A stretch of 64,000 bases of DNA, from assembly GCF_022045235.1 (NCBI RefSeq), contig NW_027266308.1:62186001-62250000 (forward strand). Direction: 5' to 3'. The position numbers and the translations under genes are program-made. This stretch comes from Haliotis cracherodii. Taxonomy: Eukaryota. Shown piece by piece: positions 37,601 through 63,693 of the stretch (position 1 is the stretch's first letter; every line of letters starts with the position of its first letter). The notes under the pieces are model-generated. The model made no database searches, was not told where the DNA came from, and worked only from the letters and a program-made list of their open reading frames with translations.

Positions 37601-40600
37601 TGTTTTCACCTTACTTGCCGATTCCATCAAGAAAGAACGGCGTAATTTATTTGGACGTCTATTTTCAGTAGTGTGTCATTCAAAGCGTCTTCAAACAAAG
37701 TCGAGGGGGCAAATGGGTACATGGTTTATGTCCTAATATGATGGAGAGACGATGGCAGGTACTGGAGGATCACGTTAGTACTGATAGAGAGTTTGCGTGA
37801 AGGATACTTACAGTGGCTATAGGTCCTAACAGGATGGAGACACGATGGCAGGTACTGGAGGATCACGTTAGTACTGATAGAGAGTTTGCGTGAAGGACAC
37901 TTACAGTGGCTATAGGTCCTAACAGGATGGAGACACGATGGCAGGTACTGGAGGATCACGTTAGTACTGATAGAGAGTTTATGTGAAGGATACTTACAGT
38001 GGCAGTAGGTCCTAGGATGGAGACACGATGGCAGGTACTGGAGGATCATGTTAGTACTGATAGAGAGTTTGCGTGAAGGATACTTACAGTGGCTATATGT
38101 CCTAGGATGGAGACACGATGGCAGGTACTGGAGGATCATGTTAGTACTGATAGAGAGTTTGCGTGAAGGATACCTACAGTGGCTATAGGTCCTAACAGGA
38201 GGGAGACACGATGGCAGGTACTGGAGGATCATGTTAGCACTGATAGAGAGTTTATGTGAAGGATACTTACAGTGGCTATAGGTCCTAACAGGATGGAGAC
38301 ATGATGGCAGGTACTGGAGGATCATGTTAGTACTGATAGAGAGTTTGCGTGAAGGATACTTACAGAGGCTATATGTCTTAACAGGAGGGAGACACGATGG
38401 CAGGTACTGGAGGATCATGTTAGCACTGATAGAGAGTTTATGTGAAGGATACTTACAGAGGCTATATGTCCTAGAATGGAGACACGATGGCAGGTACTGG
38501 AGGATCATGTTAGTACTGATAGAGAGTTTGTGTGAAGGATACTTACAGTGGGTAGACCAACTCCTGTGTACAATGTAGAGTGAATGTGTAGTTGGGGCTG
38601 GGGTTGTACAGCATGGTGTACCAGTCGGACAACTTGTTCACGTTACAGGATCGGATGTGCATGGATCCCAGCGGGTCGGCCATCAACAGGGTGAGAACTG
38701 CAGCAATGGCGCTCTCCATCAAGGCCGACAGATGCAACACTAACACAGCCCTGGGAAAGCAAGCCAACACGTTAGGAGACGTTTACAAATATCTCCATGT
38801 ATGGTGGCGTTACCCCACAATTTAGGAAAATATTACTCATGATTCATATCATCCGACCAACCCATTGTTTCACTTGCTGGAAACAGCTGTTCATAAAGCC
38901 ATGTGTTGTATTCGTAAAGAAAAGGGATGTTTGTGTATATTATTGTTGCTGTACTTGTTACTGAAAGACAAGTTCAGTGAAACATTGTTAATCTGGACTG
39001 TTCCATCACAGTGAAGTCATCTGAATAAACCAATTTCCGAATTACAAATCACAGACATTTCTCCATGTTTGGCTAGCAGCTGTTCTAATCCGATCAAGGT
39101 CCAGATTGACGTCATCCAGATTCACAAGGGTTCACTGTATTTTATGTTTTGCCTTAATGATAATGAAAAGCCATAGCCTGGACCTGTTTCCTTTTTTCGT
39201 GGGTGCGCCCAGACAAAGTTTGTAATTGCGAACAAATGCTGCATGGTTTCTCAGAGAGCAACATTTTGTCCATGAAACCAGGTCTACTTATAAAAACACT
39301 TCAAGAAAATAATTCAGCATAAATCTTTAACATTTCATCTTAACAATCTGATCTGAGTTGGCCTTGCACAATAATCCAGCAATATCACTGGTGGTGATGC
39401 CAGAAATGGGCTTCACACATTGGACAAGTAAACCAGACTATCCTACTGCCCACATCTCACCTGAATCGTTTGCCTCGAGTTTTGAAGTCGATGAAGAACC
39501 AGTGCAGCACAAGAGACAGCAGCGCCATGAAGCCGAGATACAGCCAGTCATGCAGGGCCAGGCTGCCGTCACATTCAGTACACTGTGACCAGGGAGACTT
39601 GCTGTTGGGCTGGAACCCCCGGGGACAGGCCTGCAACACAGCAACATTATATAACAGTGTTAAACAGGCCTGCAACACAGCAACATTATATAACAGTGTT
39701 CAACAGGCCTGCAACACAGCAACATTATATAACAGTGTTCAACAGGCCTGCAACACAGCAACATTATATACAGTGTTCAACAGGCCTGCAACACAGCAAC
39801 ATTATATAACAGTGTTAAACAGGCCTGCAACACAGCAACATTATATAACAGTGTTCAACAGGCCTGCAACACAGCAACATTATATACAGTGTTCAACAGG
39901 CCTGCAACACAGCAACATTATATAACAGTGTTCAACAGGCCTGCAACACAGCAACATTATATAACAGTGTTCAACAGGCCTGCAACACAGCAACATTATA
40001 TAACAGTGTTCAACAGGCCTGCAACACAGCAACATTATATAACAGTGTTCAACATTGAGGGTTGCTGTTGGGGTGGTACCCCGGGGACAGGCCTGCAACA
40101 CAACAACATTATATAACAGTGTTCAAACATTGAGGGTTGCTGTTAACCAGGTACCCCGGGGACAGGCCTGCAACACAGCAACATTATATAACAGTGGTCA
40201 AACATTGAGGGTTGCTGTTGGGGTGGTACCCCGGGGACAGGCCTGCAACACGGCAACATTATATAACAGTGTTCAACATTGAGGGTTGCTGCCAATATAT
40301 ACCACCAAATAAATATTTCTTGTCGTTATTAGAAAATATGAGGTGCCATTCTTGCTTGACAATTAGTAGCAGTTTTAGTGAAAGTGGTGTTATTTTTTCC
40401 AGAGGAAATCGGTAACGTTTTGCTGAGGTGCTGGTATAGCCTGCACCTGTATACCAGTGGTCCATTTGTATCCCAGTGGTAAATCTGCATGACAGTGGTA
40501 CGTCTGAGTAACCGTGGTACGTCTGCATGACAGTGGTACGTCTGCGTCACAGTGGTACGTCTGTATCACATTGGTAAGTCTGTATTACAATGGTACGTCT

Positions 40601-43271: not shown

Positions 43272-43787
43272 TTAGTCGCCTCTTACGACAAGCATAGTCG
43301 CCTCTTCTGACAAACATAGTCGCCTCTTCTGACAAACATAGTCGCCTCTTATGACAAACATAGTCGCCTCTTATCTCTTATGACAAACATAGTCACCTCT
43401 TATGACAAACATAATCGCCTCTTATGACAAACATAGTCGCCTCTTATGAAAAACATAATCGCCTCTTATGACAAACATAGTCGCCTCTTATGACAAACAT
43501 AATCGCCTCTTATGACAAACTTAGTCGCCTCTTATGACAAACATAATCGCCTCTTATGACAAACATAGTCGCCTCTTATGACAAACATAGTCGCCTCTTA
43601 TGACAAACATAATCACCTCTTATGACAAACATAGTCGCCTCTTATGACAAACATAATCGCCTCTTATGACAAACATAGTCGCCTCTTATGACAAACATAG
43701 TCGCCTCTTATGACAAACATAATCGCCTCTTGTGACAAACATAGTCGCCTCTTATGACAAACATAGTCGCCTCTTATGACAAACATC
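43272..43787. repeat. 22-bp minisatellite (~23 copies) expanded from the SINE B core
   Basis: Unit TAGTCGCCTCTTATGACAAACA, contiguous with the SINE B body at 43148-43292. Confidence 0.95.
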
Positions 43788-45577: not shown

Positions 45578-45894
45578 ATTTTGAAACATGTCTTTTTTTT
45601 GGAAGTTATCGTTGTTCCGACCCAGTTAAGAAATGCGTATGCCTTCACCCCAAACTCCGTCATGTCAGCACAGACAAAGTGTGAACCGATTGAAATATGT
45701 TTTTTACTGGAAGGTGTGGTGATTTCGACCTCACCCGATCAACAAATACGTATGGCTTCACCCCAAAACTCCGTTATGTCCGCACAGACAAAGTGTGAAC
45801 CGATTGAAACATGTTTTTTACTGTAAGGTGTGGTGATTTCGACCTCACCCGATCAACAAAGACGTATGCCTTCACCCCAAAACTCCGTTATGTC
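45578..45894. repeat. ~116-bp tandem repeat, ~2.7 copies
   Basis: Repeated CGTATGCCTTCACCCCAAAACTCCGTTATGTC...GCACAGACAAAGTGTGAACCGATTGAAA. Confidence 0.85.
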
Positions 45895-46039
45895 GAGATG
45901 GTGCTGACAAACCAGAATTATTAAATCAGTGTGAATCTTGGATTCGAACCCACGAACATACAGGATACTCACGCGCCTAAGAGGCGCAACCCTGTGCACA
46001 ACAAATTCCGGCACCTTGCATGACTGGGGCCACCTAGTT

Positions 46040-47040
46040 TTAACCCAGGGGTTTGATTGCGTTGAATTCAGTGCGCGCTGATGGCACGCACGCTAGTACA
46101 TGCTATCGTGTGTATCTCCATTGTGCTCTGGGAGCAATAACCTTTAGAGTGAGAGATATGCAGTTCAGTCAACTAAAAGTTGCTTGTCAAACGACGTGGC
46201 TAAAGTATATACTTTGCCCAGTGATGTAGTTACTGTATGTATTCGGTCTTCATTGTTTCAAATGTTTAATTGTAGCTTGAATTTATCACGAAAAAGTACA
46301 GATCAATTATAATATCCATTTTATTTTATATTCTTTTGGCTTGTTTGTGGTTTAACGCCGCACTCAGCAATATTCCAGCTATATGACGGCGGTCTGTAAA
46401 TGGTCTGGACCAGACAATCCAGTCATTGACATCATGAGCATCGATCCACGTATTTAGGATACGATGACATGCATCAACCAAGTCAGTGAGCCAGACCATC
46501 CGATCCCATTAGTCGTCTCTTACGACGAGCACAGTCGCCTTTTACGGCAAACATGGCTTGCTGAAGACTATTCTAACCCAGGATCTTCACGGGTGTTTGG
46601 TTTGGTTTGGTTTAGTGACGAATCCGGTTTCCATCATCGAAGGACATCTGTGCGGATCTGTGTGTATCGGCTACAGAATAAGCGCTATACCGGATGTTGC
46701 GTACCGGAAGTCGTCAGATGTGGCATGATGTAAGGGAGGAATGTCTCATGGGCGACAAACAGATCTGGTTCATACCCCGAACCACTTAACAGGTTGCGTT
46801 ACCGTGATGACGTCCTCACGCTGACTTAACCCTGCAAGAATAAAGCGCCATTTTTCAGTATGACAAAACGTATCCGCATGTACTACGACCTTGTACTGTT
46901 CATCAACATGCTGCATTGACCGTCAAGGTCACCGGATCTCAACCCAACATGCAGTATCTTAGGGATGAGCTAGACCTACGTTTACATCAACGCCAATCAG
47001 GGTCACAGAATCTGCAACAATTACGCCAAGCTCTTCAGGA
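46040..47040 (+). mobile_element. Decayed Tc1-like remnant interrupted by a SINE (46340-46593)
   Basis: WFSDESGF, RICVYR, CVPEV motifs; aligns by eye with 52485-52610 and 56870-57250. Confidence 0.65.
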
Positions 47041-48431
47041 ATAGTGAGTGAGTTGGGTTTAACGCCGCTTTTAACAGTATCCCAGTTACTAGTATATCAC
47101 GGCATGTCAACTTAATGTGGGAGGAAATCCCGAAGTTATGCAGGTCTCAGACGGTTACTACTTCGGTGAAACCCACGTTTGTGCTGACAAACCTAGAAAC
47201 ATAATCGTGACGAACCGGGATTCGAACCAACAATCTGGCGTGCCCAAGGGACACAACTCTGCACAGCGAATCGCGGCGCCTTAGACGAGTGGGCCACCCG
47301 TGCCCCCTGACATGTCTAGAAGTCATCCAGGTCAACGGTGGAAATACACAGTACCATGGTTTGAGATTGTCACATAACCGGCAAATGACAAGACTTCTCT
47401 GTCAACGTTAAATGGACTTGTCTCACTTTGTAATTTTCCAAATACAGGCATGTTGTTCGTATCGCTTACACAGGTTGTCGAGGTCAAAGAATGAATCTGT
47501 TGAAAACCACACATGCCTTCATGTTTTGGGGGATTATATTTATAATGGAATCAGGATGTGCAATGTTTATTATTTCAATCACAAATTAAATGGTAAAAAG
47601 ACGTTTAAGATGGTGAACAAGTACGGTTTTTAAGAATGTGAATTTCACTATTATGTGGATTGGGTGGTAACATTGGAGGACCATGCGTAATCATACCCTG
47701 GCGTATTTGAAAGGAAGTTCATGCTATCAACCGGTTTAATGACTTATATATTTACAGGTTGCCAATGACATAGCTGGAATATTACGAACAGTGGCATGAA
47801 AAAGCATTTACTGTTTTTATGCATAGACAATGCCTTTCAGAAAATGGTCAGATACAACATGTGTTATATTTGGGGTTTCACTTTCTTATTAAAGTTCAAA
47901 TTCGAGTACTTTTCTGGTTTCAGTCCCATCCGGGATTCGAACATACATTTTCAGAGTAAAAAGGCACCTAATCGACAGTCAGCTGTGCCAACTTACACTA
48001 ACCAGAGGGGAACACAAAGTGGGTGATCTAGACAACAGTTGTTGGATTTCCATTCTTTGAGGCCTCGCTGACTTAGTGTGCTCACGATAAAGTGCTTCAC
48101 ACTGGCAGTGTGGGTTCGAATCCCGGATGCGACTCAAGCCCGAAAAAGTCCAAGACTCTGTACGTCACAAAGAAAGTGTCATCCCAAATATAACATTTGT
48201 TACATTTGACCACCTTTATAAATGGCATTGTGTGGTCATAGCTTTCGGCCATGGGAGTCGTGCCAATTTACACTTGTCAGAGGGGTACACAAAGTACGTG
48301 ATCTAGACTACCTGTTGCCGAACATGTACACTCTGAGAGAGTGGCATTTGTACTTTATTAATAAGTGTAATCCCAAATACAACATATGTTACATTAACTG
48401 TATAGTATGAGTCAAGACTGGAGTAGTTACA

Positions 48432-48597
48432 GTGAGTGAGTGAGTATGGTTTTACGCCGCTTTTAGCAATATCCCAGCAACATCCCGGCGGGGGACACCA
48501 GAAATGGGCTTCACACATTGTACCCATGTCGGGAATCGAACCCGGGTCTTCAACGTGACGAGCGAACGCTTTAACCACTAGGCTACCCGACCGCCCC
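48432..48597 (-). mobile_element. SINE family A copy inserted upstream of SLC46 exon copy 1 only
   Basis: Absent from the paralogous flank at ~60770-60800; GGAGTAGT repeats on both sides. Confidence 0.88.
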
Positions 48598-48965
48598 GGA
48601 GTAGTGTACCCCAACAACGACTCACTTCCCGGACTCACAGACGTGTTTATGAAGCCAACATTGACCAAATTGATATGATGTATCATATTTGAGAACAATT
48701 TATGCTCATTTACATTATCTCAGATGCTCTAACATGTGACGTTGGTGACATAGAAACGAGGGACCATTTGCAAGGCGGTGACCCGTACATATTACAGTGA
48801 TAAAACAGATAAGATAATTCTGACATTTAGCATGAATGACTCATGAAGATTGTCCAGGGGCTAGCTGCACAAGACATCTCACAATAATTCTATTAGCAAT
48901 AATGATTCTTGCTTAAGAGCAGCACATATTTTCGTTCTTTGACTTGATCTGTTTCTTTCATAAGA

Positions 48966-50463
48966 ATGGATGAAAGAACGCCACTTCTTAGTGGGTCTGC
49001 AAATAGGCCTGATGTAAGGGATATCCTACAGGATGGGGAGGGTGATCCCCTTTTGATCAGGGCGTCCACTGATGCTGAATTCGAAGGACATATCATTGCT
49101 GATGTTAAAGTGAGGGTGAATGCAAGACCAAAGTCTGCTCCTCCTTTGAGACGAACCCTCATTGTGAACGACGATGAAGACACAACGTCTGCACAGAGAC
49201 ATAGACCAAAGACAAGTCTAGGCGACCAAGAGGAGATGGATGACGATGGTTGGGTAGGCTGGGCCCTCAACAGGCAGAAGAGTAGGAACAATGAGGATGA
49301 GGAGTTCCTCAACAAAGACACCAATAGGAAGGAGGATTCTCCCAAGACTCAGGTTGTAAACCTGATTCTAATGAACATCATCCTTATCATCTGGTCTATA
49401 GCCATCCATATCCACGGCCCGGCATGGAGTCAGTATTTCTTCCATAGGTTGGAAGAAGAAGTGTTTGGGAATACGTCGCGTTCTTCTGACGGCAACAATT
49501 CGAGCTACGACGCGTCCTACTGTGAAAACCCATCACTCAACGCTTCAGATTCAAACGGGACAAACTCCCTACAAGAAAAGGCCGAACAGCTCCAGACGAC
49601 ATGGAGCATGTGGTTTACATTCACAGGATGTCCTATTGCTCTAGTGAGTACGGTCATCTTTAGTGCCTATTCCGATTACTTTGGTCGAAAAGTGTTGTTT
49701 TTAATTCCAATGATTGGCACTCTACTCAATTATGCCCTGATAACCGCCATCATTCATTGGTCATTAAATCTTGATCTGTTATTCATAAACTGTGTAATAT
49801 CATCAATTTGTAGTACTGAAATATTCACTATTGCATGCTTGGCTTACATCGCTGACAACACGCCCCCTGAGGGTTCACGGACCACTGGATTAGTTGTAAT
49901 GGGAATAACACAGACTTTAACCAATGCAGCCTTGTCCACTGGTGTTGGGTACTACATACAACTTGAAGGCTATTTCCTCCCAAGTGTGACTGCGGTTGCA
50001 ATTCTCCTGCTAGCAGTGTTGGCTGTTGTGGTCATCCTGCCAGAAAGTAAAAAGACGCCATCGTCTTCAGTGTTGAGGAAACAGAAGAAGAAGGAGAGGA
50101 AGTTACTTACTCCGTTAGGAGCCATAAAAAATGTTTTTGGCTTTTACTTTACCGAAGGTACTGTGAAAACTAGAATAATGTACTCAATTCTTTTGTTGGC
50201 AATGGCTTTTCACAAAATTGCATTGAAAACTGGTAGCATCGGTACGTTATGGGAGATGACCTGGCCTTTATGTTGGAGTCCGGAGATGATGGGTTACTAT
50301 GGGACCGGAGCCTCCATCTTTTCTCAACTGATTAAAATCCCTCTTCTGAAGCTGTATCAGTGCTGCTTCAACGACGTGCTCATCGCCATCTGGAGCAACC
50401 TCGCCGTAGTTGGAGCCAATATTCTGAAGGCATTTGCTACCAACAACTTCTTGATGTACGGGG
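48966..50463 (+). CDS. SLC46A/PCFT-like MFS transporter, large first coding exon, copy 1 (no own downstream exons seen)
   Basis: Open 1498-nt exon with multiple TM helices, SDYFGRK MFS motif A, AYIAD, LPES and PLCWS..MGYYG motifs typical of SLC46. Ends at an intact donor G|gtaagc (50464). Confidence 0.85.
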
Positions 50464-51137
50464 GTAAGCAGCACATTTCTTGGATTTATCTAGCTTTCCA
50501 GACTTGTTATAGATTCCCGAACAGACTCAGTTGATTCTGTTACCTGCATATGGCAGTGTTGTGTAACTGCATTATTTGTTAGTGTAAAGCGCACACCTCC
50601 TGTGTAGATACCTAGATCGGCCGATGTTTAAGTTAACAGAAATTAGGTATACAATCATATATCGCGCAATATCGTATTGAATGGTCACGACTTGTGGAAC
50701 GTGATTGTCACGTGGACTTGTGAGATTTATTCCAGCTGCAATATGGATGTTCCCAATGCTGACCGAGATAGATAGATGGGATTGTGATGAGCCGAGTTAA
50801 TTCCGGGACAAAAGAGCTCCTTCGTACAAATCCATGCAGTAATTTCTGCTATTGTGCATACCAAGCGATTGTCCGTTGCTTTCGTTTGTAGTCAAACGCG
50901 ATATACTGAAATCGGTGCAGTCCTTGAAAGTGGATGGCTTTCCATATTATTTTAGATTGTTATATATATTATATTTATTAAGACGTCTTGTTACACACGC
51001 GACAGTAACTGATAGTTACTGCTATTTGAAACACATCAAAATGACATGTCGGGATAGAATAGGTCTTCAGAAACCCATTGATGCCGTAAAAGGAGACTAT
51101 GCTTGTCGTAAGAGGCGACTAACGGGATCGGTTGGGC

Positions 51138-51643
51138 CATCTTCCCGAGGCATGAGAGTTAACTGACTTTAAAAGTTCAGTTTCCACCCTTGCCGAACTA
51201 GACTGGAATTCCTGGGCTCGATCGTAGCGCCACCAGTGGCTATTACTACTTATGTCCCTTCTAAGCCTCTCCTATGGACCAATCAGATTCATCCTCTCGT
51301 ATCACTTGTGTTTGCTTCACACAAAATGTTGGCGCCCAGTCAGAACGATCTGATCGATGATCAAGTTCTATATCGTGATAAAACGGGTCTTACATCGCGA
51401 AATGCATCAAATCACGTGAGCACCAAACATGAAAAGATTTGGAAAATATCTGCTGACAACGAGTTGGCGATGCACATGCTTTGCAAATCCTGCAATCGAC
51501 CGAAATCTGCACGACAGTTTACGAACCGAATTTCGATTTCGGTGCGCGATTTTGATTGGACTATGCATAGACTCGTTAGTCCAGCCAAAATGTAACTCCA
51601 TAATACCAGCCTAGTTCAGTTTACTCTCTTGCTTCGGGAAGAT
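51138..51643. mobile_element. Same Mutator-like MITE nested inside a SINE family B copy
   Basis: SINE B sequence resumes on both sides; imperfect 9-bp TSD. Confidence 0.85.
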
Positions 51644-53278
51644 GCGGTTGGTCAGACTCGCTGACTTGGTTGATGCATGCCATCGTTTCCCAATTGCGTG
51701 GGTTGATGCTCATGATATCAATCACTAGATTGTCTGGTTCACGCGCGATTATTTTCAGAATACTGCCATATAGTTGGAATAATGCTGAGTGCGGCGTTAA
51801 ACAACATGAAACAAAAACAAAAACAAAAAAGACAACGTTCTACGTTATTCGATTTTTTACACGGTTACGTAAACAAAGAATAAATGCTCAACAAGAAACG
51901 TTTTGTCACATTTCGTCAATTAATGACAACATTTTATCTGTGCAACAATCGAAACATATCTTAAAGATATTCTATTGGCTAAATAGATCGTGTGAGATTT
52001 GATGCTACCTTCTATCTGGCTTGTTTGTGTCAGGTGCACTGTAGATACTTGGTGGTTTGTAATCTCAAGGAGAGTATTTTATTGTACCTTTTGCTCGTCC
52101 TAAAATTAGCTGTTGTTATTCTTGGTAACCACATGGCATCTTGTGATTGTATGTTATCGTACGCCGTGGAACGATGCTCACGCTGTCCAGGCAGGTTTCT
52201 TCTTGCCTGACTTGACAGACTGACCCTCAATTGAGAAACTAATGGACGTAAACTATTCCTGGATAGTTCCTCCAACTCAATGCAAAATTGTGCATTAGGG
52301 AGGTACATTGTGATGTTACACAGCTATGCACTGAGACCCAATCTCATTAAAACCCACGAGCACGAGTATAGTGCTTACAGCCAAGAATATTAAAATCAGG
52401 GTGAATATATAGGATATAGGATTCTGACACGCATTAAGGACGCAACCCTGTGTACAGCATATTCCGGCAGGGGTGGCTGTTTAATTGCGTTGAATTCACT
52501 GCGCGCTGATGGCACGCACGCTAGTACATACTATCTTCTGTATCTCCATGTGCTCAGAGAGCTATACCTTTAGGGTGGGATATACGCAGCGCAGTCAACT
52601 GAGATTCTTTTGTCGTGGCTGAAATTTGCTCAGAAGTTAAAAACAACTTGGCACTACTAGGAACCGTCCAAGACACGGGCCACCATGCATGTCCAAAACA
52701 ACCTATGGTTGCTACGCCCGGGTTCTTCACCTTCTAAACAGGACACTCACTGCAACGTACATGGCAAAATAAATTCGTACAAACCTGTAGAGGTTGTGGA
52801 TTCTCTGATGAAATCCTCCTTGGGGCACTTATTGCATTTTCCTTGCTCAAGAAAATCTACATGACATAGTTGCAACCATTTTCCTTAATAAAAATGTTAC
52901 CACACAAAAAACAACGTTTTTGTATGATATATGACCACCCCAACGGGGCCTCACCCTCTACCGGCGACACACGGCAAGGGGAGCGACTCTCACCCAAATC
53001 ACTTTTCCAATGTCTCATAGCAGACGGAATGTGGGGAGGAGGGCGGACGTGCCCCAAGGAGGATTTCATCAGAGAATCCATAACCTCTACAGGTTTGTAC
53101 GATTCTCTTTCAGATTAAATCCTCCTTGGGGCACTTATTGCATCAAGATAGACTCCTAAAGACAATAAAGGAAGTGGCATCCGTCTGCAACAAGCGTAAA
53201 CACATCGTTTAACATGATGATAGAGAATTAAAAAAATGGAACCCACCTTATGGTTTATCATAAAGCGAGTGAAAACTC

Positions 53279-53310
<32 letters not shown>

Positions 53311-53443
53311 TTTGTACAAGTGATAACGGGGACAACAATCACGAGGGACAATACGCCTGCTAGCTAGGCAGGCTTTAGGGTCCCGTAGGATCGAGCGAGT
53401 GACGTGCCAAGAAAACCGGAGGACAGTCTAAAATCTCGAAGAC

Positions 53444-54520
53444 TCAATCGGCTAGAGATGTAGAACTCTGCCCAGTGCAGAGAACTGACTGACCGAAACG
53501 AGCACGCTCCCTAGAGTGTTTATCGATTTGGTAATGTTTGATGAACGTACTCGGCCGGCTCCAAATAGCCACAGAGCAGATCTCCTCAATGGGGAGAGCT
53601 GCGGCATACGCTTTTGACGTAGCCACTGCCCTAACCGAATGAGCCTTCAACCCCTCAGGGGTGTCCCTCCCTTTGTTCCTACAAGCCGAACAAATAATAG
53701 AAACAATCCACAGCGAAATAGATTGTTTGCTCGCAGGGGAGCCAGCCTTCCCACCGCAATAAGAGCAGAATAATTGGTTATCCTTACGGATATCCTTAGT
53801 CTTGCTGATATAGACCTTGAGAATCTTGCGGACATCCAAGACATAAGCATGTCTTGCAGAGGTCCCCGACGAGGAAGGCTGTGAAAGAGCAGGTAGCTCG
53901 ATAGCAGCCGTCACGTGGAAAGCGTGTGCGACCTTGGGACGGTAAGAGTCCGGTAGCCGAATACTGACTCTGTCCAGGTGAAAGACGGTCAGCTCGGGAT
54001 CGGCGGACATTGCGTGAATGTCGCCTACCCGTCTACCTGACGTCACTGCCACAAGGAACGCCGCCTTCCAGCTAAACAGCTGAAGGGAGAGAGACGACAG
54101 CCAATCAAGATCGATTGACAAGTCCCAAGGAAGACTGATCCGCCGGACAGGCGGTCGAATCCTGTCCACGCCTGCCAAAAAGCGTTGCACTAAAGGGTAC
54201 GCACCCAGAAGTGCCCTGTTGATAGGGACGTGAAAGACCACAATGGCTGTTGAGTACCCCCTGACTGTCGATGCGGCCAGGCCGGCATCAAGTCGTCATT
54301 GGAGGAACTCTAACACCACGACTAGATCTGCAGAAAAGGGATCTGCAAGCCCTTTATCGACACACCACCGCGCATTGCAGGCCCATCTATCCTCATACTG
54401 AACGTTTGTTGAATCCCTCCGCGAAGCCAGTATTGTGTCTGCAACTTGCGCAGGAATACCGCTCTTCTGGAGGCGATTCCGGACAGTGGCCAAGCCACCC
54501 ACTGAATCCTGGAATTCAGG
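53444..54520 (-). pseudogene. DIRS tyrosine recombinase; catalytic domain open (53444-54241), N-terminal part interrupted
   Basis: GRRVGDI (R), HSVR (H,R), FIKHY (Y) tetrad. The upstream SAM-like part (SRRDST..QY..RW) is in a separate ORF ending at 54296. Confidence 0.88.
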
Positions 54521-54552
54521 TGGAGTGCCCCGTTCTTGGATTGGGGGTCCGG

Positions 54553-54942
54553 TCATAAAGGTAATAGAACAGGAGGCTGAGCCAGAAACCTGAGTATTAC
54601 GGGAAACCAACTCTGCGTTGACCAAAGAGGTGCCAGTAGCACAAGAAGCCGTGCAGGCTGAGTGGCTAGCTGAGAAAGGACCCTGGGAATCAGAGGAACT
54701 GGTGGGAAGGCCCACAGAACTCTGTCCGTCCAATCTAGCTGTAAGGCGTCCGGTGCCGCCGACCTCGGGTCGGGGACTTGGGAGCAGAACACTGGTGTCT
54801 GGTGGTTCACCACAGACGCAAACAGATCCACCTGGAACGACCCGTATAATCGGGAGATAATCCCGAATATCCCCGCGTCGAGCCTCCACTTGTGAGGAGC
54901 GAGGATCCGGCGAGACAGAGCGTCTGCATGGACCTTCTCCAT
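54553..54942 (-). pseudogene. DIRS DNA N6-adenine methyltransferase-like domain
   Basis: ADALSR, DLFAS, DALQLDW, WAFPP.PLI, APLW..Q.WF motifs characteristic of the DIRS pol C-terminus. Confidence 0.8.
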
Positions 54943-54949
54943 CCCTGGG

Positions 54950-56368
54950 AGATAAACAGGTTTCTTGGAGAAGCGACGGAGACACCGTTCCCCCCTGCTT
55001 CCGGATGTAAGTCATCGCCGTTTGGTTGTCCATTTCTACACGAATCACCTGGCCAAGAAGCAGATCCAAGAAGCGTTAGAACACCAACGTGACCGCTCTC
55101 AGTTCCAGCACATTGATGTGCAGCTCGATCTCCTGCTGGGACCACAGTCACGAGGCAGTGTGATCGTTCAGAACACCTCCCCAGCCAGAGAGTGACGCGT
55201 CTGTCTGAACTGTGAGAGACGGAACGGCAGTGTCGAGGGGGAGCCCCCGGGACAGATTCCCGTCCTCAGTCCACCACTGAAGGTGTGGAATGAGCCACGC
55301 TGTGGTCTCGAGAACCTTCTCGAGATCCTCCGAGTTCGCCCATAACCGACGTAACGCCTGCTGAATGGGTCTCATTCGCAAACGTGCTCGCCAAACCACA
55401 TCCACTGTCGCCGACATGTTACCCAGTAGCTGGAGCCATGTGCGAGCAGTGTGTCTCGTGGAAAGAAGGAACAGTGAAGTTACACTCTTGACCCTGACAA
55501 TGCGGTCTTGTGAGAGGGAGACAAGCCCGCTCTCTGTGTTCAAATTCGCTCCTAAGAAGACCAGGGTCTGAGCAGGGTTCAGATCTGACTTCTTTAGGTT
55601 GACTATCCACCCTAGAGATACCAGAATGTCTAACACCTCTTGTGTAGCAATCTGACTCATATGGTGAGATAGTGCTCGTAGCAGCCAGTCGTTGAGGTAC
55701 GGATGACAGAACCGACCTTTCGACCTGGCCACTTGGGCAGGAATCAACATCAGCTTGGTGAACACCCTCGGGGCCGGGGAGATCCTGAAGGGTAGAATCC
55801 GGAACTGATAACACCTCGCGTCGAAAGAAAACCACAGGTATTTCTTGAACTCGCTGTGTATAGGTTCATGGAGATAGGCGTCTTTGAGGTCTATTGACGT
55901 CAGCCATTCCCCAGACTCTACAGCAGAGATCACTGAGCGCAGTGTCTCCATCCTGAAGGACGGTACCTCTATGAGTTTGTTCAGTTTTCTCAGGTTGAGA
56001 AAAGGTCTGAACCCTCCGTCTTTCTTTTTGTGACGAGGAAATAAGTGGAGTAATAGCCCTCGCTTTCCTGTCCCATTGGAACCGGCTCGATAGCAGGTTT
56101 GTCTAGCAGTGCTACGATCTCGTCCCGAAGTATGTCCGCCTTCTCTCGGGTAGCGTGCACCGGAGTGGGCCTTATCCCGAAGAAGGGTGGCGGAAAACGT
56201 TTCCACTGAGGCAAGTGGCCTTCCCTGAGTGTGGACATGACCCAGGGATTGGATGACACCTTCTCCCATTTCGACAGAAAGAGAGAGAGTCGGTAACTGT
56301 GGGGCCACCTGGGGCCGAGCAGGAGCTATTGGGAACCCGCTTGGTGCACGTGGCGGCCAAGTTACCAC
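54950..56368 (-). pseudogene. DIRS reverse transcriptase/RNase H, frameshifted
   Basis: KKDGGFRPFLNLRKLN, IDLKDAYLH, LPFRISPAPRVFTK, catalytic YLDD changed to YLND, TDASLSGWG, DNQTAMTYIRKQGG. Several frameshifts. Confidence 0.9.
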
Positions 56369-57899
56369 AATTAAGAAACCATAGAATGCGAGGAATTACG
56401 CCTTTGCAAGGAAGAAAAGGGAAATATACCACACATACACTGTCAGCCATGTCTTCAAGTTTCAACGTATAAGTTGGGTGAAGGTTTCTCTGAGTCTTAA
56501 CGCACGTCTGGTCTGCCAGATGACATAAGGAAAAGTGATTTGGGTGAGAGTCGCTCCCATTGCCGTGTGTCGCCTGTAGAGGGTGAGGCCCCGTTGGGGT
56601 GGTCATATATCATACAAAAACGTTGTTTTTTGTGTGGTAATATTTTTATTAAGGAAAATGGTGACAACTATGTCATGTAGATTTTCTTGAGCAAGGAAAA
56701 TGCAATAAGTGCCCCAAGGAGGATTTAATCTGAAAGAGAATCCTGGTTTAGGTTCCACAGATGCGCAGACTTCAGTAACTGTTTACGAGCTCCCGGGAAT
56801 CCAGAAAAGAAGACCCTACGTTGGCGTTATTTTATCTCAACGTGATCGAGTTCAGTGGCTACAAAGGTGTGGTATTTTGTGAGGAACCAGCTTCCTTCTT
56901 CAAAGGAGATATTTGCGGATCTGTATGTATCGGCTGCAGAAGGAGTGTTATACCGGATGTTGCGTACAGGAAGTCGAGAGATGTGGAGGATATGTTATGA
57001 TGTTGGGGAGTAATCTCCTATGGGCGATGAACAGAAATGTGGTTCTTATTCAGAACAACTTAACAGGTTGTGTTACCATGACGGTATCCTCACGTTGTCT
57101 CGACTCTGCAAGCATCAAGCGCTATTTTCTTCATGACAATGCTTGTCCACACATCGCATGTGTCTGTATTGTACATACCTTGGTTGTAAAGGTCGCCGGA
57201 TCTCAACCGCATCTGAGGAAATCTTTAGCAATGACGCCAAGCTCTTCAACGCATTTACCCAATGGGTCATTCATACCCCCGGTGGTAAATTTGCAGAGGT
57301 AGGGCAAATTTACCACTGGGGGCATGTGTTTAACCCACGGATAGATGTACCCTCGGGGAGTATTATGTGCATATAAAAGATAGCTACGCGATAAATCACA
57401 AAGAACAATGAAGAACGAAGCGTTGTTTATTTCACGATAAAACATTGTTCTATCTTAAGGTCATTTCTGGAGATTCTAATATGCGCTCGCAACTTGATGA
57501 CGTCACATACTGAATGACGTTATTTTCTAGAGAGAGATATAGCTACTCAGATAAACGCAGTGGCGGGACGATTGCATCCCAAAGTGAGTAAGATATGACA
57601 ATCGCTATTAGGAGAAAAGGTACAGATAATCGACGTTAGGGTTGTGAGAATATTCGGGAAATACCAAACGTAACCCACCTGTTCGTAAAATGGACTTGTC
57701 CGACATATCCGAGTCGGATTCTATTCAGGGAGTCATCATTATTAAAATTTGTTTTATCAACTCCTTAATGAGGCTGTGTATAATGTTGATATCTCATAAG
57801 AAACAGACTCTATTATAATATTATAATAAAACACTGCAGGCTGTGCTCCTCATGGTTTATTCTCCCTGCAATGTTTTATTGTACCTTAACCAACACCCA

Positions 57900-58327
57900 G
57901 TGTGTGTGTTTGTGTGTGTGAGTGTTTGAGTGTGTGTGTGAGTGAGTGTGTTTGAGTGATGTGCGAATGTGAGTGTGTGTGAGTGTGTATGTGATTGTTT
58001 GTGTGAGTGAATGTGTGTGAGAATGTGTGAATGTGTGTGTATGAGTGTGTGTATTTGTGAGTGAGTGTGCGAATGTGTGTGTGTGGGTGAATGAGTGTGT
58101 GTGTGAGTGAGTGTGTGTGAGTGAATGTGTGTGTGTGAGTGTGTATGTGAGTGTGTGAATGTGTGTGCGACTGCGTGAGTGTGAGAGTGTAAGTGTGAAT
58201 ATGCGAGTGCGAGTGTGTGTGTGTGTATGTGAGTGTGTGAATGTGTGTGTGTGTGCGACTGCGTGAGTGTTAGTGTGAATGTGCGAGTGCGAGTGTGTAT
58301 GTGAGTGTGTCGTATGTGTGTGTGTGT
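57900..58327. repeat. Degenerate (TG)/(TGAG) microsatellite
   Basis: Low-complexity TG-rich tract; source of the His/Thr-rich ORF. Confidence 0.95.
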
Positions 58328-58918
58328 TACGTATGGCTGTTATTTTATGTACCTGTGAACACTGTTTCATGTAAGGAAAATTCCTTCTTTGTATTATCTG
58401 ATCTTATCTTATCTTACTATTTATATTGTTTCAATAACATATTAAATGGTACAACTACAAGACTTGTGGTATAAGTATGGATTTGATTGATGATATGTAT
58501 TAACCTGGGGTATGTGTAATTATTATTTTTCGTTTTAAATGAAATACTGTGTTTGATCGAATTTCTTAACTAATATTAACTCATCTATTTCATTCCAAAA
58601 TCTTTAATCACAGTTCTGCACCAAGAACAGCTTGTTCTGAATCGAGTATTGTCCACAGGACGTATTCGTGGAATGTTGCTAAAAGAGACACAAGAATCTT
58701 ACTCCCGGGACGTATTTGCCATAAGTGATTTGTTGCAAAATTGTAATCTTATTACCAACTGTAGTCACTAAGGTCTCATCCATGGGGATCCGGGTCCGAT
58801 TCTGTAATCTGATGATTAAGATGATCGGGTGGTTACAATTTTTCACCGTGCATGTTTATACCCGACACCGTTCAATCGTAGCTCATGCTAGCAAGCCCTG
58901 GTTTGATGATTTGATCAT

Positions 58919-59107
58919 NNNNNNNNNNNNNNNNNNNNNNNNNNNNNNNNNNNNNNNNNNNNNNNNNNNNNNNNNNNNNNNNNNNNNNNNNNNNNNNNNN
59001 NNNNNNNNNNNNNNNNNNNNNNNNNNNNNNNNNNNNNNNNNNNNNNNNNNNNNNNNNNNNNNNNNNNNNNNNNNNNNNNNNNNNNNNNNNNNNNNNNNNN
59101 NNNNNNN
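58919..59107. other. Assembly gap (N run)
   Basis: Run of N characters. Confidence 1.
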
Positions 59108-59272
59108 TCGAGTATGCAGTATACATGTTATATATTTTCAACAATAAAGACAAGAAATACTAATAGGGCAAGATTGACAATTTTTTTACTAAAGACAGTT
59201 TAATGGGTTAAAAGGCAGGTGACATAATTGTTAAGGGCTTACACAGTTTCAGGTCAATACCCAAAATGTCAG

Positions 59273-60608
59273 TCAATACCTGGTGTGACCACCATTAGTA
59301 TTGATCACTGCCACACATCTCCTGTACATTGAGTGGATCAGACGATTTGTGAAGGCCCTAGGGGTCCTCCTGCACACATCCAGAGCAGCTGTGCGTAGTT
59401 CATCGGCAGTTGTAGGGACTGGGCGCACATTGTGCAGACGCCTTTGAACCTCATCCCACAAGTGTTCGATGGGGTTCAGACCAGGGCTGAGGGCTGGCCA
59501 CGGTAGAACGCGGATGTTGTGTTGTTGCAGAAAGGCCACGGTAGCTCTGGCAACATGGGGACGAGTGTCGTCCTGCTAGAAAATGTGTTGTTGATTTTGC
59601 GCAAAAAATGCAACAACGTGGGGTCTGATCACTTGGTCGATATACCGCTGAGCAGTGACGCCGTGTCCCCGACCTTGAACAACATTCAGAAAGCACATGG
59701 GTCCAAGTCTCGCATTAAGTCCAATCCCTGCCCATATCATGACGCTAGGTCCACCCCATGGACCCCTTTCCACAACGTTTCTGTCAGCGAAACGATCACC
59801 TCGACGCCGCCAAATTCTGACTCTTCCGTCTGCATGGGAGACACAAAAGCGACTTTCATCAGAGAAGATGACGCGCCTCCACTCATGATGACGCCAATTG
59901 CTATGACCCTGTGCCCAATGAAGTCGTGCTTGTCGATGCCGTGGTTGGAGAACAGGACGACGTGCTGGTCGGCGACATCTGAGGTTGTTGGAACGGAGAC
60001 GTCGGATCACAGTGTCCCAGCTAATGTGTCGATTATGTGTTCCTATGGTCTGTCGAGCACTTTCACTTGCAGTTAGGAACGGATGTCGCTGGTGTTGACG
60101 GGTAATCTGCCGATCTTGTCGAGGTGTGGTGACCCTAGGACGACCGCTCCGAGTAAGGTCATCTGTGGTCTGTGTAGCATTGTATCGATGCAGGAGGCGG
60201 TAAATTGTGATTATGTTAACGTTGAAATGACGGGCAAGATCTTGGACAGACTCTCCAGCTTCCAAACGTCCGATTTCTCTGAATTTGAGTTAGGCGTGGC
60301 ATTGTTGTCCAAGGAGTGTTAGGTCCAAGAATCGGCCACAGTTTTATACCCACTACAGTTCGTGACAGTTCGTGCATTTACGATTTCGCGAGAAAAGGGT
60401 GCATGATAGCCACATATTCATTGAAATGGTGCGTTTTTGCGATTCGTTTTTTTATGTTGCGTTTTTACTCGGGGTTTCCAAAATGCAACCAAAAATATTG
60501 ATAACACCATAAGGCTTCACTAAATCCTAAAACTCGTATCAATTTATGTTTCCGTGTTTGTTACCTATTTGCTTAAAACCACTTGTGTTTCTTTCGCGTT
60601 TGAGTATA
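59273..60608 (-). mobile_element. Tc1/mariner DNA transposon with defective DD34E transposase (ATG ~60302, stop 59273)
   Basis: MPRL start, HTH, GRPRVTT, IFSDESRF, WPALSPGLNPIEHLW, NGGHTRY. Premature TAG at 59576 in the F.QD motif and an N-terminal frameshift. TA at the right terminus; left TIR not confidently seen near the gap. Confidence 0.92.
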
Positions 60609-61160
60609 TATATCCGGGATTCGAACCCACACTCTCAGAGCGAGGCACCTTATCGCTAACACACAATGGCAGCGAGTGCCAGAGTTTGTACTTTACTAAA
60701 AAGTGTAAACCCTAAATACAACTTATTTTACATCAACTGTAGAGTATTAATTACGTTGGTCCAGGCTGGAGTATTTACAGACTGTCGTGATACGGCTCAA
60801 CAATGACTCTTTCATCAGTACAAACGCATTTATGAAGCCAAAATTGACAAAACTAATATGATGTATCATATGTGAGAACAATTTACGTGTGCTTACATTA
60901 TCTTCGACTCAGATGATCTAACATGTGACGTTGGTGACATTGATACCTTTTTTTACCTTTGGTTACCTCACATATTACAGCGATAAAACTGATAAGGGTG
61001 AGGGTAAGATAATGCTGACATTTAGCATGAATGACTCACGAGGACTGTCCAGGGGCTAGCTGCACAAGATACGTTGCAATAGTTCTATTAGCAAAAATGA
61101 TTCTGGCGTGAGAGCTGCACACATTTTCGTTCTTTGACTTGAACTGTTTCTTTCATAACA

Positions 61161-63693
61161 ATGGATGAAAGAACGCCACTTCTTGATGGGTCTGCAAACA
61201 GGCCTGATGTAAGGGGTATCCTACAGGATGGGGAGGGTGATCCCCTTTTGATCAGGGCGTCCACTGATGCTGAATTCGAAGGACATATCATTGCTGATGT
61301 TGAAGTGAGGGTGAATGCAAGACCAAAGTCTGCTCCACCTTTGAGACGAACCCTCATTGTTAACGACGATGAAGACACAAAATCTGCACAGAGACATAGA
61401 CCAAAGACAAGTCTAGGCGACCAAGAGGAGATGGATGACGATGATTGGGTAGGCTGGGCCCTCAACAGGCAGAAGAGTAGGAACAATGAGGATGAGGAGT
61501 TCCTCAACAAAGACACCAATAGGAAGGAGGATTCTCCCAAGACTCAGGTTGTAAACCTGATTCTTATGAACATCATCCTTATCATCTGGTATATAGCCAT
61601 CCATATCCACGGTCCGGCATGGAGTCAGTATTTCTTCCATAGGTTGGAAGAAGAAGTGTTTGGGAATACGTCGCGTTCTTCTGACGGCAACAATTCGAGC
61701 TACGACGCATCTTACTGTGAAAACCCATCACTCAACGCTTCAGGTTCAAACGGGACAAACTCCCTACAAGAAAAGGCCGAACAGCTCCAGACGACATGGA
61801 GCATAAGATTTACAGTCACAGGATGTCCTATTAGTCTTGTGAGTACGGTCCTCTTTAGTGCCTATTCGGATTACTTTGGTCGAAAAGTGTTGTTTTTAAT
61901 TCCAATGATTGGCACGCTACTCAATTTTGCCCTGACAACCGCCGTCATTCATTGGTCATTAAGCTTTTACATTTTATTCATAGGCTCTGTAATAGGCTCG
62001 ATTTGTAGTTATGAAGTATTCACTATTGCATGCTTGGCTTACATCGCTGACAATACGTCCCCTGAGGGTTCACGGACCACTGGCTTAGTTGTAATGGGAA
62101 TAACACAGACTTTGACCAATGCAGCCTTGTCGACTGGTGTTGGGTACTACATACAACTTGAAGGCTATTTCCTCCCATGTGTGACTTCGATCGCAATTGT
62201 GCTGCTTGCAGTGTTGGCTGTTGTGGTCATCCTGCCAGAAAGTAAAAAGACGCCATCGTCTTCAGTGTTGAGGAAACAGAAGAAGAAGGAGAGGAAGTTA
62301 CTTACTCCGTTAGGAGCCATAAAAAATGTTTTCGGTTTTTACTTTACCGAAGGTACTGTGAAAACTAGAATAATGTACTCAATTCTTTTGTTGGCAATGG
62401 CTTTTCACAAAATTGCATCGAAAACTGGTAGCATCGGTTCGTTATGGGAGATGACCTGGCCTTTATGTTGGAGTCCGGAGATGATGGGTTACTATGGGAC
62501 CGGAGCCTCCATCTTTTCTCAACTGATAAAAATCCCTCTTCTGAAGCTGTATCAGTGCTGCTTCAACGACGTGCTCATCGCCATCTGGAGCAACCTCGCC
62601 GTAGTTGGAGCCAATATTCTGAAGGCATTTGCTACCAACAACTTCTTGATGTACGGGGGTAAGCAGCACATTTCTTGGATTTAACTAGCTTTCCAGACTC
62701 CTTATAGATTCCCGAACATTCGAACAGACTCGGTTTAGCTTGAGAAGTGAAGTGTTATTTGATCGACCGATTTTCATGGTTATTAAAAATCAGGTGTACA
62801 ATCTGATATTTAAGGTTCTTATTGACTGTGTTTTGGAACGTGATTGTCACGTGTACTTGTGCGAGTTATTTTTTTATAAGGAAAGAAAGTCTGACTGCAT
62901 GCTCGTCCACGAATACCCTCGCTGCGACTCATAATAGTGAAGAACAAAGAAATCCACTTGCAAATTGGGCATACATACGCTCATGTCACCTCTCCTTTTG
63001 AGGAACTATTTTATTCCGCGATACAGGTTGTTGTTGTGTGGCTGTCAGAGTACACATTAATGTACACATACTAAATACAATTGTGTGTACATTCTTCGAG
63101 GTACAAAATAGTGAGTTAATTGGCACTTTCATAGATTGAGGACCAAACTTTAGCATGTGATCCAAAGTGAAATAAAGCGACAAAACCCCTTCCATATCCA
63201 ATAATAATTTCTGTATAAAACAAAGTCCTCGATTGCACGATTCCGACTATATCATGAGCATGTGTTTATGAATCACTATCAAACAGTAATGATACCAGGT
63301 GTCCGCGAAAAGGTGAGCGTATCCTGCCCCGGTGGCACCTGTTACAAACACATGCAAAGGCACGTCAACTGTTCACCTAAAAGAAACACGGGAACATATA
63401 GTACAAATCAAATTAGGGGAAAAGGGACTAACATTTTTTAATAAACATTTGTATTTCCTGAATGTGAACTGACGAAAAACTTCGTTAAATTCTTCGAGTG
63501 AGTTCTCCGTCTGATGTGTATTGTATAGTTTCCATTGCAAAACTATATGCGCACATTTGACAGTAATCTCATATAATAGGATGTTTATTAAATGTTAGTT
63601 ACTTTTCAGTTGCAGCCGTCGGATCTTTTGATGTAGCTCTAATCTCCGCAATCCAGTCTATCATGTCAGCAATGGCCGGTCCTGACCGTCAAG
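61161..63693 (+). CDS. SLC46A/PCFT-like MFS transporter, copy 2: exon 61161-62658 plus 84-nt exon 63610-63693; gene continues beyond the window
   Basis: 1498-nt exon, ~94% aa identical to copy 1, same donor G|gtaagc. Next exon ttttcag|TTGCAGCC...CAAG|gtaaaa encodes VAAVGSFDVALISAIQSIMSAMAGPDRQG in the correct phase. Confidence 0.88.

Follow-up and report, generated by a model that had tools for sequence, protein, structure and literature searches.

Can two intact copies of a giant first coding exon be served by a single set of downstream exons? The question is raised by an SLC46-like locus of the black abalone, Haliotis cracherodii, lying in a 64,000-nt stretch of genomic DNA (RefSeq assembly GCF_022045235.1, contig NW_027266308.1, positions 62,186,001 to 62,250,000 of the forward strand; hereafter the window). 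On balance we favour the reading that this is a two-exon, UGT2A-like alternative-promoter locus within what is, judged from its gene models, an ordinary tandem array of whole-gene duplicates, and not a system of protocadherin scale.

Two first exons and their candidate shared partner

The two exon copies are each 1498 nt long, stop-free in frame 0 (499 codons plus 1 nt) and followed directly by GTAAGCAGCAC, an identical phase-1 GT donor, in agreement with a preliminary description of the sequence. They differ at 63 of 1498 nucleotides and 31 of 499 amino acids, with no indels. Exon 2, preceded by AG and followed by GT, continues the frame in phase 1-1, and the earlier claim that it occurs only once was upheld by tblastn over all 64 kb (queries: exon 2, four C-terminal sequences and five full proteins), which found neither a second copy nor any other SLC46 exon in the window. 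Intron 1 of copy 2 is 951 nt long; a splice from copy 1 to exon 2 would span 13,146 nt. As in a variable-first-exon cluster, the homologous first coding exons lie in tandem, on the same strand and in the same phase, and a single downstream exon set is found in the window with none between the variable exons, with a reservation for a run of 189 N between the copies. The window from 1 to 45000 is mostly dispersed repeats, copy 1 being the 5′-most family member within 48 kb.

By sequence and fold criteria the product is an SLC46-like 12-helix MFS transporter. Pfam MFS_1 scored above its cut-off for the abalone SLC46-like protein, chicken PCFT (7bc6) was the sole PDB sequence match (phmmer, E 8.7e-35), and PCFT/SLC46A1 was the top fold match (E 6.6e-16, 24% identity by fold search); the predicted structure (mean predicted local distance difference test score 50.8) is too weak for pocket geometry and was used solely for helix limits. 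Exon 1 encodes a disordered N-terminal tail of 125 residues and predicted transmembrane helices (TM) 1-9, and the last 119 residues hold predicted TM10-12. The 84-nt exon is presumably the counterpart of human SLC46A1 exon 3. A giant first exon is the usual architecture of the family, the reading frames of distant relatives ending just past the same position. Copy 2 matches the 618-aa H. cracherodii protein XP_071081120.1 without a difference over the exon, and copy 1 agrees at every one of its 499 residues with the start of an NCBI model of 522 aa (P0009) that reads through the unspliced donor, its frame running 23 residues further to a stop ending at 50534.

Among the clusters examined, the black abalone chromosome has 15 SLC46-like models. 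Three further, separately named black abalone proteins of 618 aa diverge at 0, 0 and 1 of the C-terminal 119 positions, and copy 1 is the only one of five black abalone models in its cluster without downstream exons. Black abalone has more models than red abalone in each subgroup (5 vs 3, 4 vs 2 and 4 vs 2), some of them 2-7 residues apart; the roughly doubled counts reflect either recent expansion or residual haplotype duplication. In H. rubra, XP_046575207.1 is a 376-aa model ending just past the exon-1 donor; it shares 91% identity with a complete H. asinina protein of 494 aa and represents a further first-exon-only model or an assembly break.

The best support that downstream exons may be shared comes from red abalone protein sequences. 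RefSeq XP_046351187.2 ('isoform X1') and XP_048259572.1 ('isoform X2'), both 618 aa, differ at 24 of the 499 exon-1 residues (spread over 9-485) and at none of the 119 after residue 499; isoforms of one gene with this pattern would therefore use different genomic copies of exon 1. X1 and X2 are the only isoform-labelled members of an eight-member cluster, in which a third red abalone protein, one C-terminal residue off both, has no such label, and theirs was the only swapped-first-exon isoform pair in the 26 SLC46 clusters examined. At 11 sites copy 1 pairs with X2 and copy 2 with X1, and at none is the pairing reversed, so the exon pair predates the split between black and red abalone. X2 is a mosaic, copy-2-like at residues 215-231. 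The last difference between X1 and X2, at residue 485, lies about 43 nt from the donor, and junction reads could separate them. In black abalone the final 130 nt of the two exons are identical, too long a stretch for short junction reads to distinguish the copies. Two other candidates for doubled first exons, XP_067682648.1 (H. asinina) and XP_025104542.1 (Pomacea canaliculata), were rejected, each being two whole tandem genes fused.

Transcript evidence came from X12 and X14, runs from other species that are guessed, not recorded, to be RNA. Their exon contigs stop exactly at 50463 and continue with 667 and 641 letters from elsewhere, with no cover of 50546-50962, and carry copy-2-type letters at the diagnostic positions inspected (176 further rows aside). 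With both runs taken as RNA, use of the donor in splicing is confirmed for copy-2-type sequence. A contig, possibly RNA, with copy-2-type letters starts at the equivalent of 48882, which puts a collinear 5′ untranslated region (UTR) of 84 nt or more ahead of the exon. The X12 and X14 contigs showed no copy-1 transcript, and since contigs drop rare variants this is a blank rather than an absence; a low-depth X12 piece (2.8) near 50517 could be assigned to neither copy, and none of 3069 candidate short protein fragments spanned the junction with copy-1-type residues.

The differences between the copies are predicted to reach the substrate pocket. In a phmmer alignment with chicken 7bc6, positions 276 and 420 align with PCFT Arg156 and Phe290, which contact pemetrexed (PMC8978580, PMC7612623). 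Positions 275, 279 and 284 align with human PCFT Gly147, Ala152 and Phe157, mapped as substrate-domain residues (PMC8978580), and all five positions differ between the copies; the mapping depends on a single pairwise alignment, which is gapped near 278. Of the 31 residue differences between the copies, 9 fall in predicted TM4, and among the proteins compared position 420 is variously Ser, Leu, Ala or Gln. In this alignment PCFT Arg156, Asp164, Glu193, His289, Phe290 and Arg384 are not kept, being replaced by Ser/Cys276, Ser283, Gly313, Ala419, Ser/Leu420 and Gln515; since the charges that bind folate in PCFT are missing, the ligand is probably something other than folate. Mammalian SLC46A2 and SLC46A3 and a Drosophila SLC46 have been implicated in muropeptide transport (10.1101/2022.09.29.509906), which makes muropeptides one candidate lead by analogy. 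The PCFT pocket needs TM10-11 (PMC8978580, PMC7612623), and a diversified pocket would be useful only together with TM10-12, which favours splicing of copy 1 to its neighbour's exons.

Under the two-exon reading, copy 1 would be transcribed from its own promoter and its donor at 50463 spliced across 13.1 kb to the shared exon at 63610, the copy 2 exon, which has no obvious acceptor, being skipped inside the intron of copy 1 as in UGT1A and UGT2A. Variable TM1-9 would thus be joined to constant TM10-12, giving two transporters of 618 residues, and selection would keep the copy-specific pocket residues while gene conversion evened out the remainder. A bolder version, a UGT-style variable/constant MFS locus that diversifies recognition of dietary or microbial ligands, with models like H. 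rubra XP_046575207.1 as more variable exons, is speculative and on present evidence unlikely.

The duplicated unit and its insertions

The preliminary description had the duplicated unit running from upstream DNA to about 270 nt into the intron, and alignment bears this out. Intron homology stops at 50731/62870, and upstream homology was found at 45894-46188 and 52363-52614 (69%), 46604-46944 and 56866-57208 (72%), 48336-48432 and 60671-60780 (76%) and 48612-48963 and 60798-61158 (78%), together with two blocks not described before, 47563-47630 and 58419-58484 (71%) and 47641-47745 and 58806-58912 (65%), the latter ending 6 nt before the N run. The sequence from 52363 onwards already belongs to the upstream part of the next unit; four blocks are collinear up to 58912, and homology resumes after the Tc1 element. 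The N run is either an assembly gap or a masked stretch. Feature coordinates are collected in Table 1.

Table 1. Features of the two units, with positions in the window.
Feature	Position	Strand	Remark
Unit 1 far-upstream DNA	45894..47745	+	Collinear with 52363-58912
Copy 1 proximal upstream region, likely promoter and 5′ UTR	48612..48965	+	78% identical to that of copy 2
Copy 1 giant first coding exon: N-terminal tail and predicted TM1-9, SLC46-like MFS	48966..50463	+	Phase-1 GT donor; lacks own downstream exons
Start of copy 1 intron 1	50464..50731	+	Sole part homologous to the intron of copy 2
SINE split by MITE	51051..51831	.	Site of copy 1's exon 2 if collinear with copy 2
Unit 2 far-upstream DNA	52363..58912	+	Interrupted by DIRS-like retroelement (~52770-56743) and GT-rich repeat (57899-58327)
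N run, 189 nt	58919..59107	.	Inside the collinear upstream region of unit 2
Tc1-type transposon (ends approximate)	59108..60450	-	Transposase ORF 59576-60289
Copy 2 proximal upstream region, likely promoter and 5′ UTR	60671..61160	+	Homology to that of copy 1
Copy 2 giant first coding exon	61161..62658	+	Translation = residues 1-499 of XP_071081120.1
Exon 2, 84 nt, predicted TM10; putative first shared exon	63610..63693	+	Later exons beyond the window
SINE, short interspersed nuclear element; MITE, miniature inverted-repeat transposable element; ORF, open reading frame.

Of the copy-specific insertions that had been reported, the SINE, the Tc1 element and a reverse-transcriptase element are present, and the label DIRS rests partly on judgement by eye. 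Pfam matches were obtained for a reverse-transcriptase ORF at 55151-56395 (RVT_1, E 9.6e-13) and for a Tc1/Tc3-type transposase at 59579-60289 (E 6.3e-14); the ORF adjacent to the former looks tyrosine-recombinase-like by eye, without a Pfam match. Each of the four sequencing runs contains the SINE and MITE (51051-51831) in very high copy number. The DIRS-like element has nested inverted terminal pieces (52767-53143, 56511-56743), with 52798-53025 matching 56511-56743 inverted at 93%; its reverse-transcriptase ORF (55148-56395) and recombinase-like ORF (53444-54295) are on the minus strand, and it looks frameshifted. By eye, the shared block 46604-46944/56866-57208 looks like a decayed fragment of a Tc1-type transposase older than the duplication. 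Tandem repeats occupy 37727-38554, 39599-40291, 43272-43786 and 45581-45894 (units of ~93, 75, 22 and 110 nt), and the first contains an open minus-strand frame of 303 codons, probably a by-product of the repeat.

Motifs TGACTCA, TGACGT and GATAA are kept in both upstream regions (48730-48860 and 60920-61055); we take these to be AP-1-, cAMP response element (CRE)- and GATA-like. At 48950-48965 copy 1 has an acceptor-like pyrimidine tract ending in AG before the start codon, where copy 2 has AC, so that entry from an upstream exon might occur too.

Both copy types were also found in DNA from other sources. X5, a run of DNA from one organism (A) made in another study, yielded copy-1-specific contigs covering the promoter with the start of the exon (452 nt, 1 difference), the variable region (156 nt, no difference) and the flank out to 52750, as well as copy-2-type letters. 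Contig depth in this run, 25-37 for copy-1-specific contigs and 58-60 for the shared exon, fits two copies; it gives no copy number and was not used. In X7, from organism B, a second species, a copy 1 promoter contig (48728-48957) had 3 differences in 230 nt, and the exon-less flank of copy 1 was found at 50507-50934 and 52019-52750; the promoter differed less than the downstream flank (3/230 vs 50/1192; Fisher p 0.035, post hoc). The passage of the flank across 52363 was found in both runs. With both types in X5 and in organism B and an orthologous pair in red abalone, the copies are the result of an old duplication and not two alleles, as had been proposed.

Alternative explanations for copy 1

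The earlier observation that the flanks are more diverged than the exons holds, but it does not on its own prove maintenance of both exons, because gene conversion as well as selection shapes the contrast. Synonymous divergence (dS) in the exon rises from 0.03-0.05 near its ends to 0.16-0.18 centrally and stays far below the divergence of the flanks (65-78% identical, 22-35% divergence), which indicates that the exons were homogenised long after the duplication. Codons 215-350, which make up 27% of the exon, hold 42 of the 63 nucleotide differences (p 8e-11), and the copies have identical runs of 130, 125 and 120 nt. The ratio of nonsynonymous to synonymous divergence (dN/dS) between the copies is 0.39 over the whole exon, without a stop or indel. 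Tyr406 is present in all five black abalone copies and in none of three red abalone proteins, a species-specific distribution from which it follows that conversion acted at 406 after the species split, yet only 14 codons further on both copy 1 and X2 retain Leu420. Such resistance to homogenisation says more about function than the open frame does.

Several points weigh against alternative use of the two exons. No read or contig that joins 50463 to 63610 was seen, in a comparison with sequencing runs that did not take in exon 2. The assignment of X1 and X2 to one gene is inferred from how they are named and from the lack of isoform labels elsewhere in the cluster, and the annotation could itself be wrong, given that RefSeq models fusing neighbours exist for SLC46 (XP_067682648.1, XP_025104542.1) and that the NCBI model of copy 1 in black abalone is the unspliced 522-aa read-through. 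Identical C-termini alone prove nothing, since separate paralogs have them too. An open frame is by itself weak evidence of function, as conversion from working paralogs may preserve the frame of a dead exon; codons 215-290, the least converted, give a dN/dS of 0.75, a value that does not separate relaxed from diversifying selection, and patches of the Leu420 type may have survived by chance before conversion reached them. Neither X5 nor X7 has a contig bridging the SINE and MITE (~50960-51900).

The alternative that survives best, which we regard as doubtful yet a real possibility, is that copy 1 is an orphan partial duplicate, which lost or never had exons 2-4, gives little or no spliced product and is kept open by conversion from its working neighbours; it may in turn supply the array with variant patches. 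The unspliced NCBI model fits this explanation, as do the evident conversion (clustered differences, identical runs, low dS, the X2 mosaic) and the recurrence of first-exon-only models in the array, exemplified by H. rubra XP_046575207.1 with its full H. asinina relative. It accounts less well for the retention in two species of 11 copy-specific residues, one of them at an isolated site that aligns with the pocket and neighbours a converted site, for the conservation of the copy 1 promoter in organism B and for the annotation of X1 and X2 in red abalone.

An assembly effect, in which collapse, misplacement or the N run took the downstream exons of copy 1 out of view, or in which the copies are haplotypes, is improbable. 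A 189-nt N run does lie between the copies, the C-terminal exons of the paralogs are near-identical at the protein level and hence prone to collapse, and no single contig spans the stretch in either DNA run. Against this, 8.4 kb of unbroken sequence past the donor lacks exon 2 and consists of the next unit's upstream DNA from 52363, the same flank with its passage across that point occurs in X5 and X7, and both copy types are present in two species. The N run itself is unlikely to hide exons of copy 1, judging from the upstream homology, which is collinear up to it and resumes after the Tc1 element; exons there would have upstream DNA of the neighbour on both sides. A functional unspliced product of 522 residues with about nine TM, for example a modulator of full-length transporters, would suit the 23-residue open extension, the corresponding NCBI model and the oligomers formed by human PCFT (PMC8978580), but is very unlikely, because the donor and the next 60 nt are 95% kept between the copies, read-through models are common in the family (a count of 18 matches hand-picked from 150) and look like by-products of gene calling, and the PCFT pocket requires TM10-11.

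Relation to known variable-first-exon systems

With two of the five features that define the class found in it, the abalone locus is probably a variable-first-exon locus, although the protocadherin- or UGT1A-style system of the preliminary description was an overstatement for two exons in an ordinary array of a family in which a giant first exon is usual. If the splice from copy 1 is real, the locus would be a young, two-exon stage of the architecture of vertebrate UGT and protocadherin genes, standing beside ordinary whole-gene duplicates, and the two routes to transporter diversity could be compared directly. It would also provide a natural SLC46 pair with TM10-12 shared and pocket-aligned positions different, which would help to find the cargo of molluscan SLC46 proteins. 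If the splice is not real, an ordinary orphan duplicate is left, with a caution on isoform calls in tandem arrays. No SLC46 or abalone case of variable first exons was found in the literature searched (mostly open-access, without supplements); the supplementary table of PMC8373072, outside that scope, may list N-terminal swaps of transporters.

N-terminal swaps are a well-known class, since they make up 39 of 236 human tandem-exon substitutions (PMC8373072). UGT2A1/UGT2A2 is the two-exon case among five human clusters (PMC8373072), and the abalone locus resembles it and UGT1A (PMC8373072, PMC1885805) in its large tandem first coding exons, each with its own upstream region, its putatively common 3′ exons, and a variable exon that carries the substrate-determining part, in abalone by prediction. 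Unlike the UGT genes, it encodes a 12-helix membrane transporter in a mollusc, has only two exons, and places 499 of 618 residues in the variable one; splicing of copy 1 is inferred, and the copies are 94% identical and reshaped by conversion, which is reported as minor in Ugt1 (PMC1885805). The organisations of Ugt1, Gcnt2 and Ugt2a are called vertebrate-specific (PMC1885805). Protocadherins alpha and gamma share with the abalone locus large variable first exons, small constant exons (in abalone putative) and conversion between neighbouring exons (PMC8373072, PMC1885805), but have 15-21 exons and serve combinatorial cell identity, whereas abalone has two exons and stochastic promoter choice is unsupported there.

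Chicken PCFT differs from the abalone protein in that its folate residues are not kept in abalone, which has in addition the 125-residue disordered N-terminal tail and a lineage-specific array. In the transporter genes SLC7A2 and SLC25A3 the swapped exons are small, internal and mutually exclusive. These two genes and SLC12A1 resemble the abalone locus in that duplicated homologous exons give variant transporters from one gene (PMC8373072); in SLC12A1 the exons exchanged are small, internal and mutually exclusive, whereas the abalone locus would swap nearly the whole transporter by choice of promoter.

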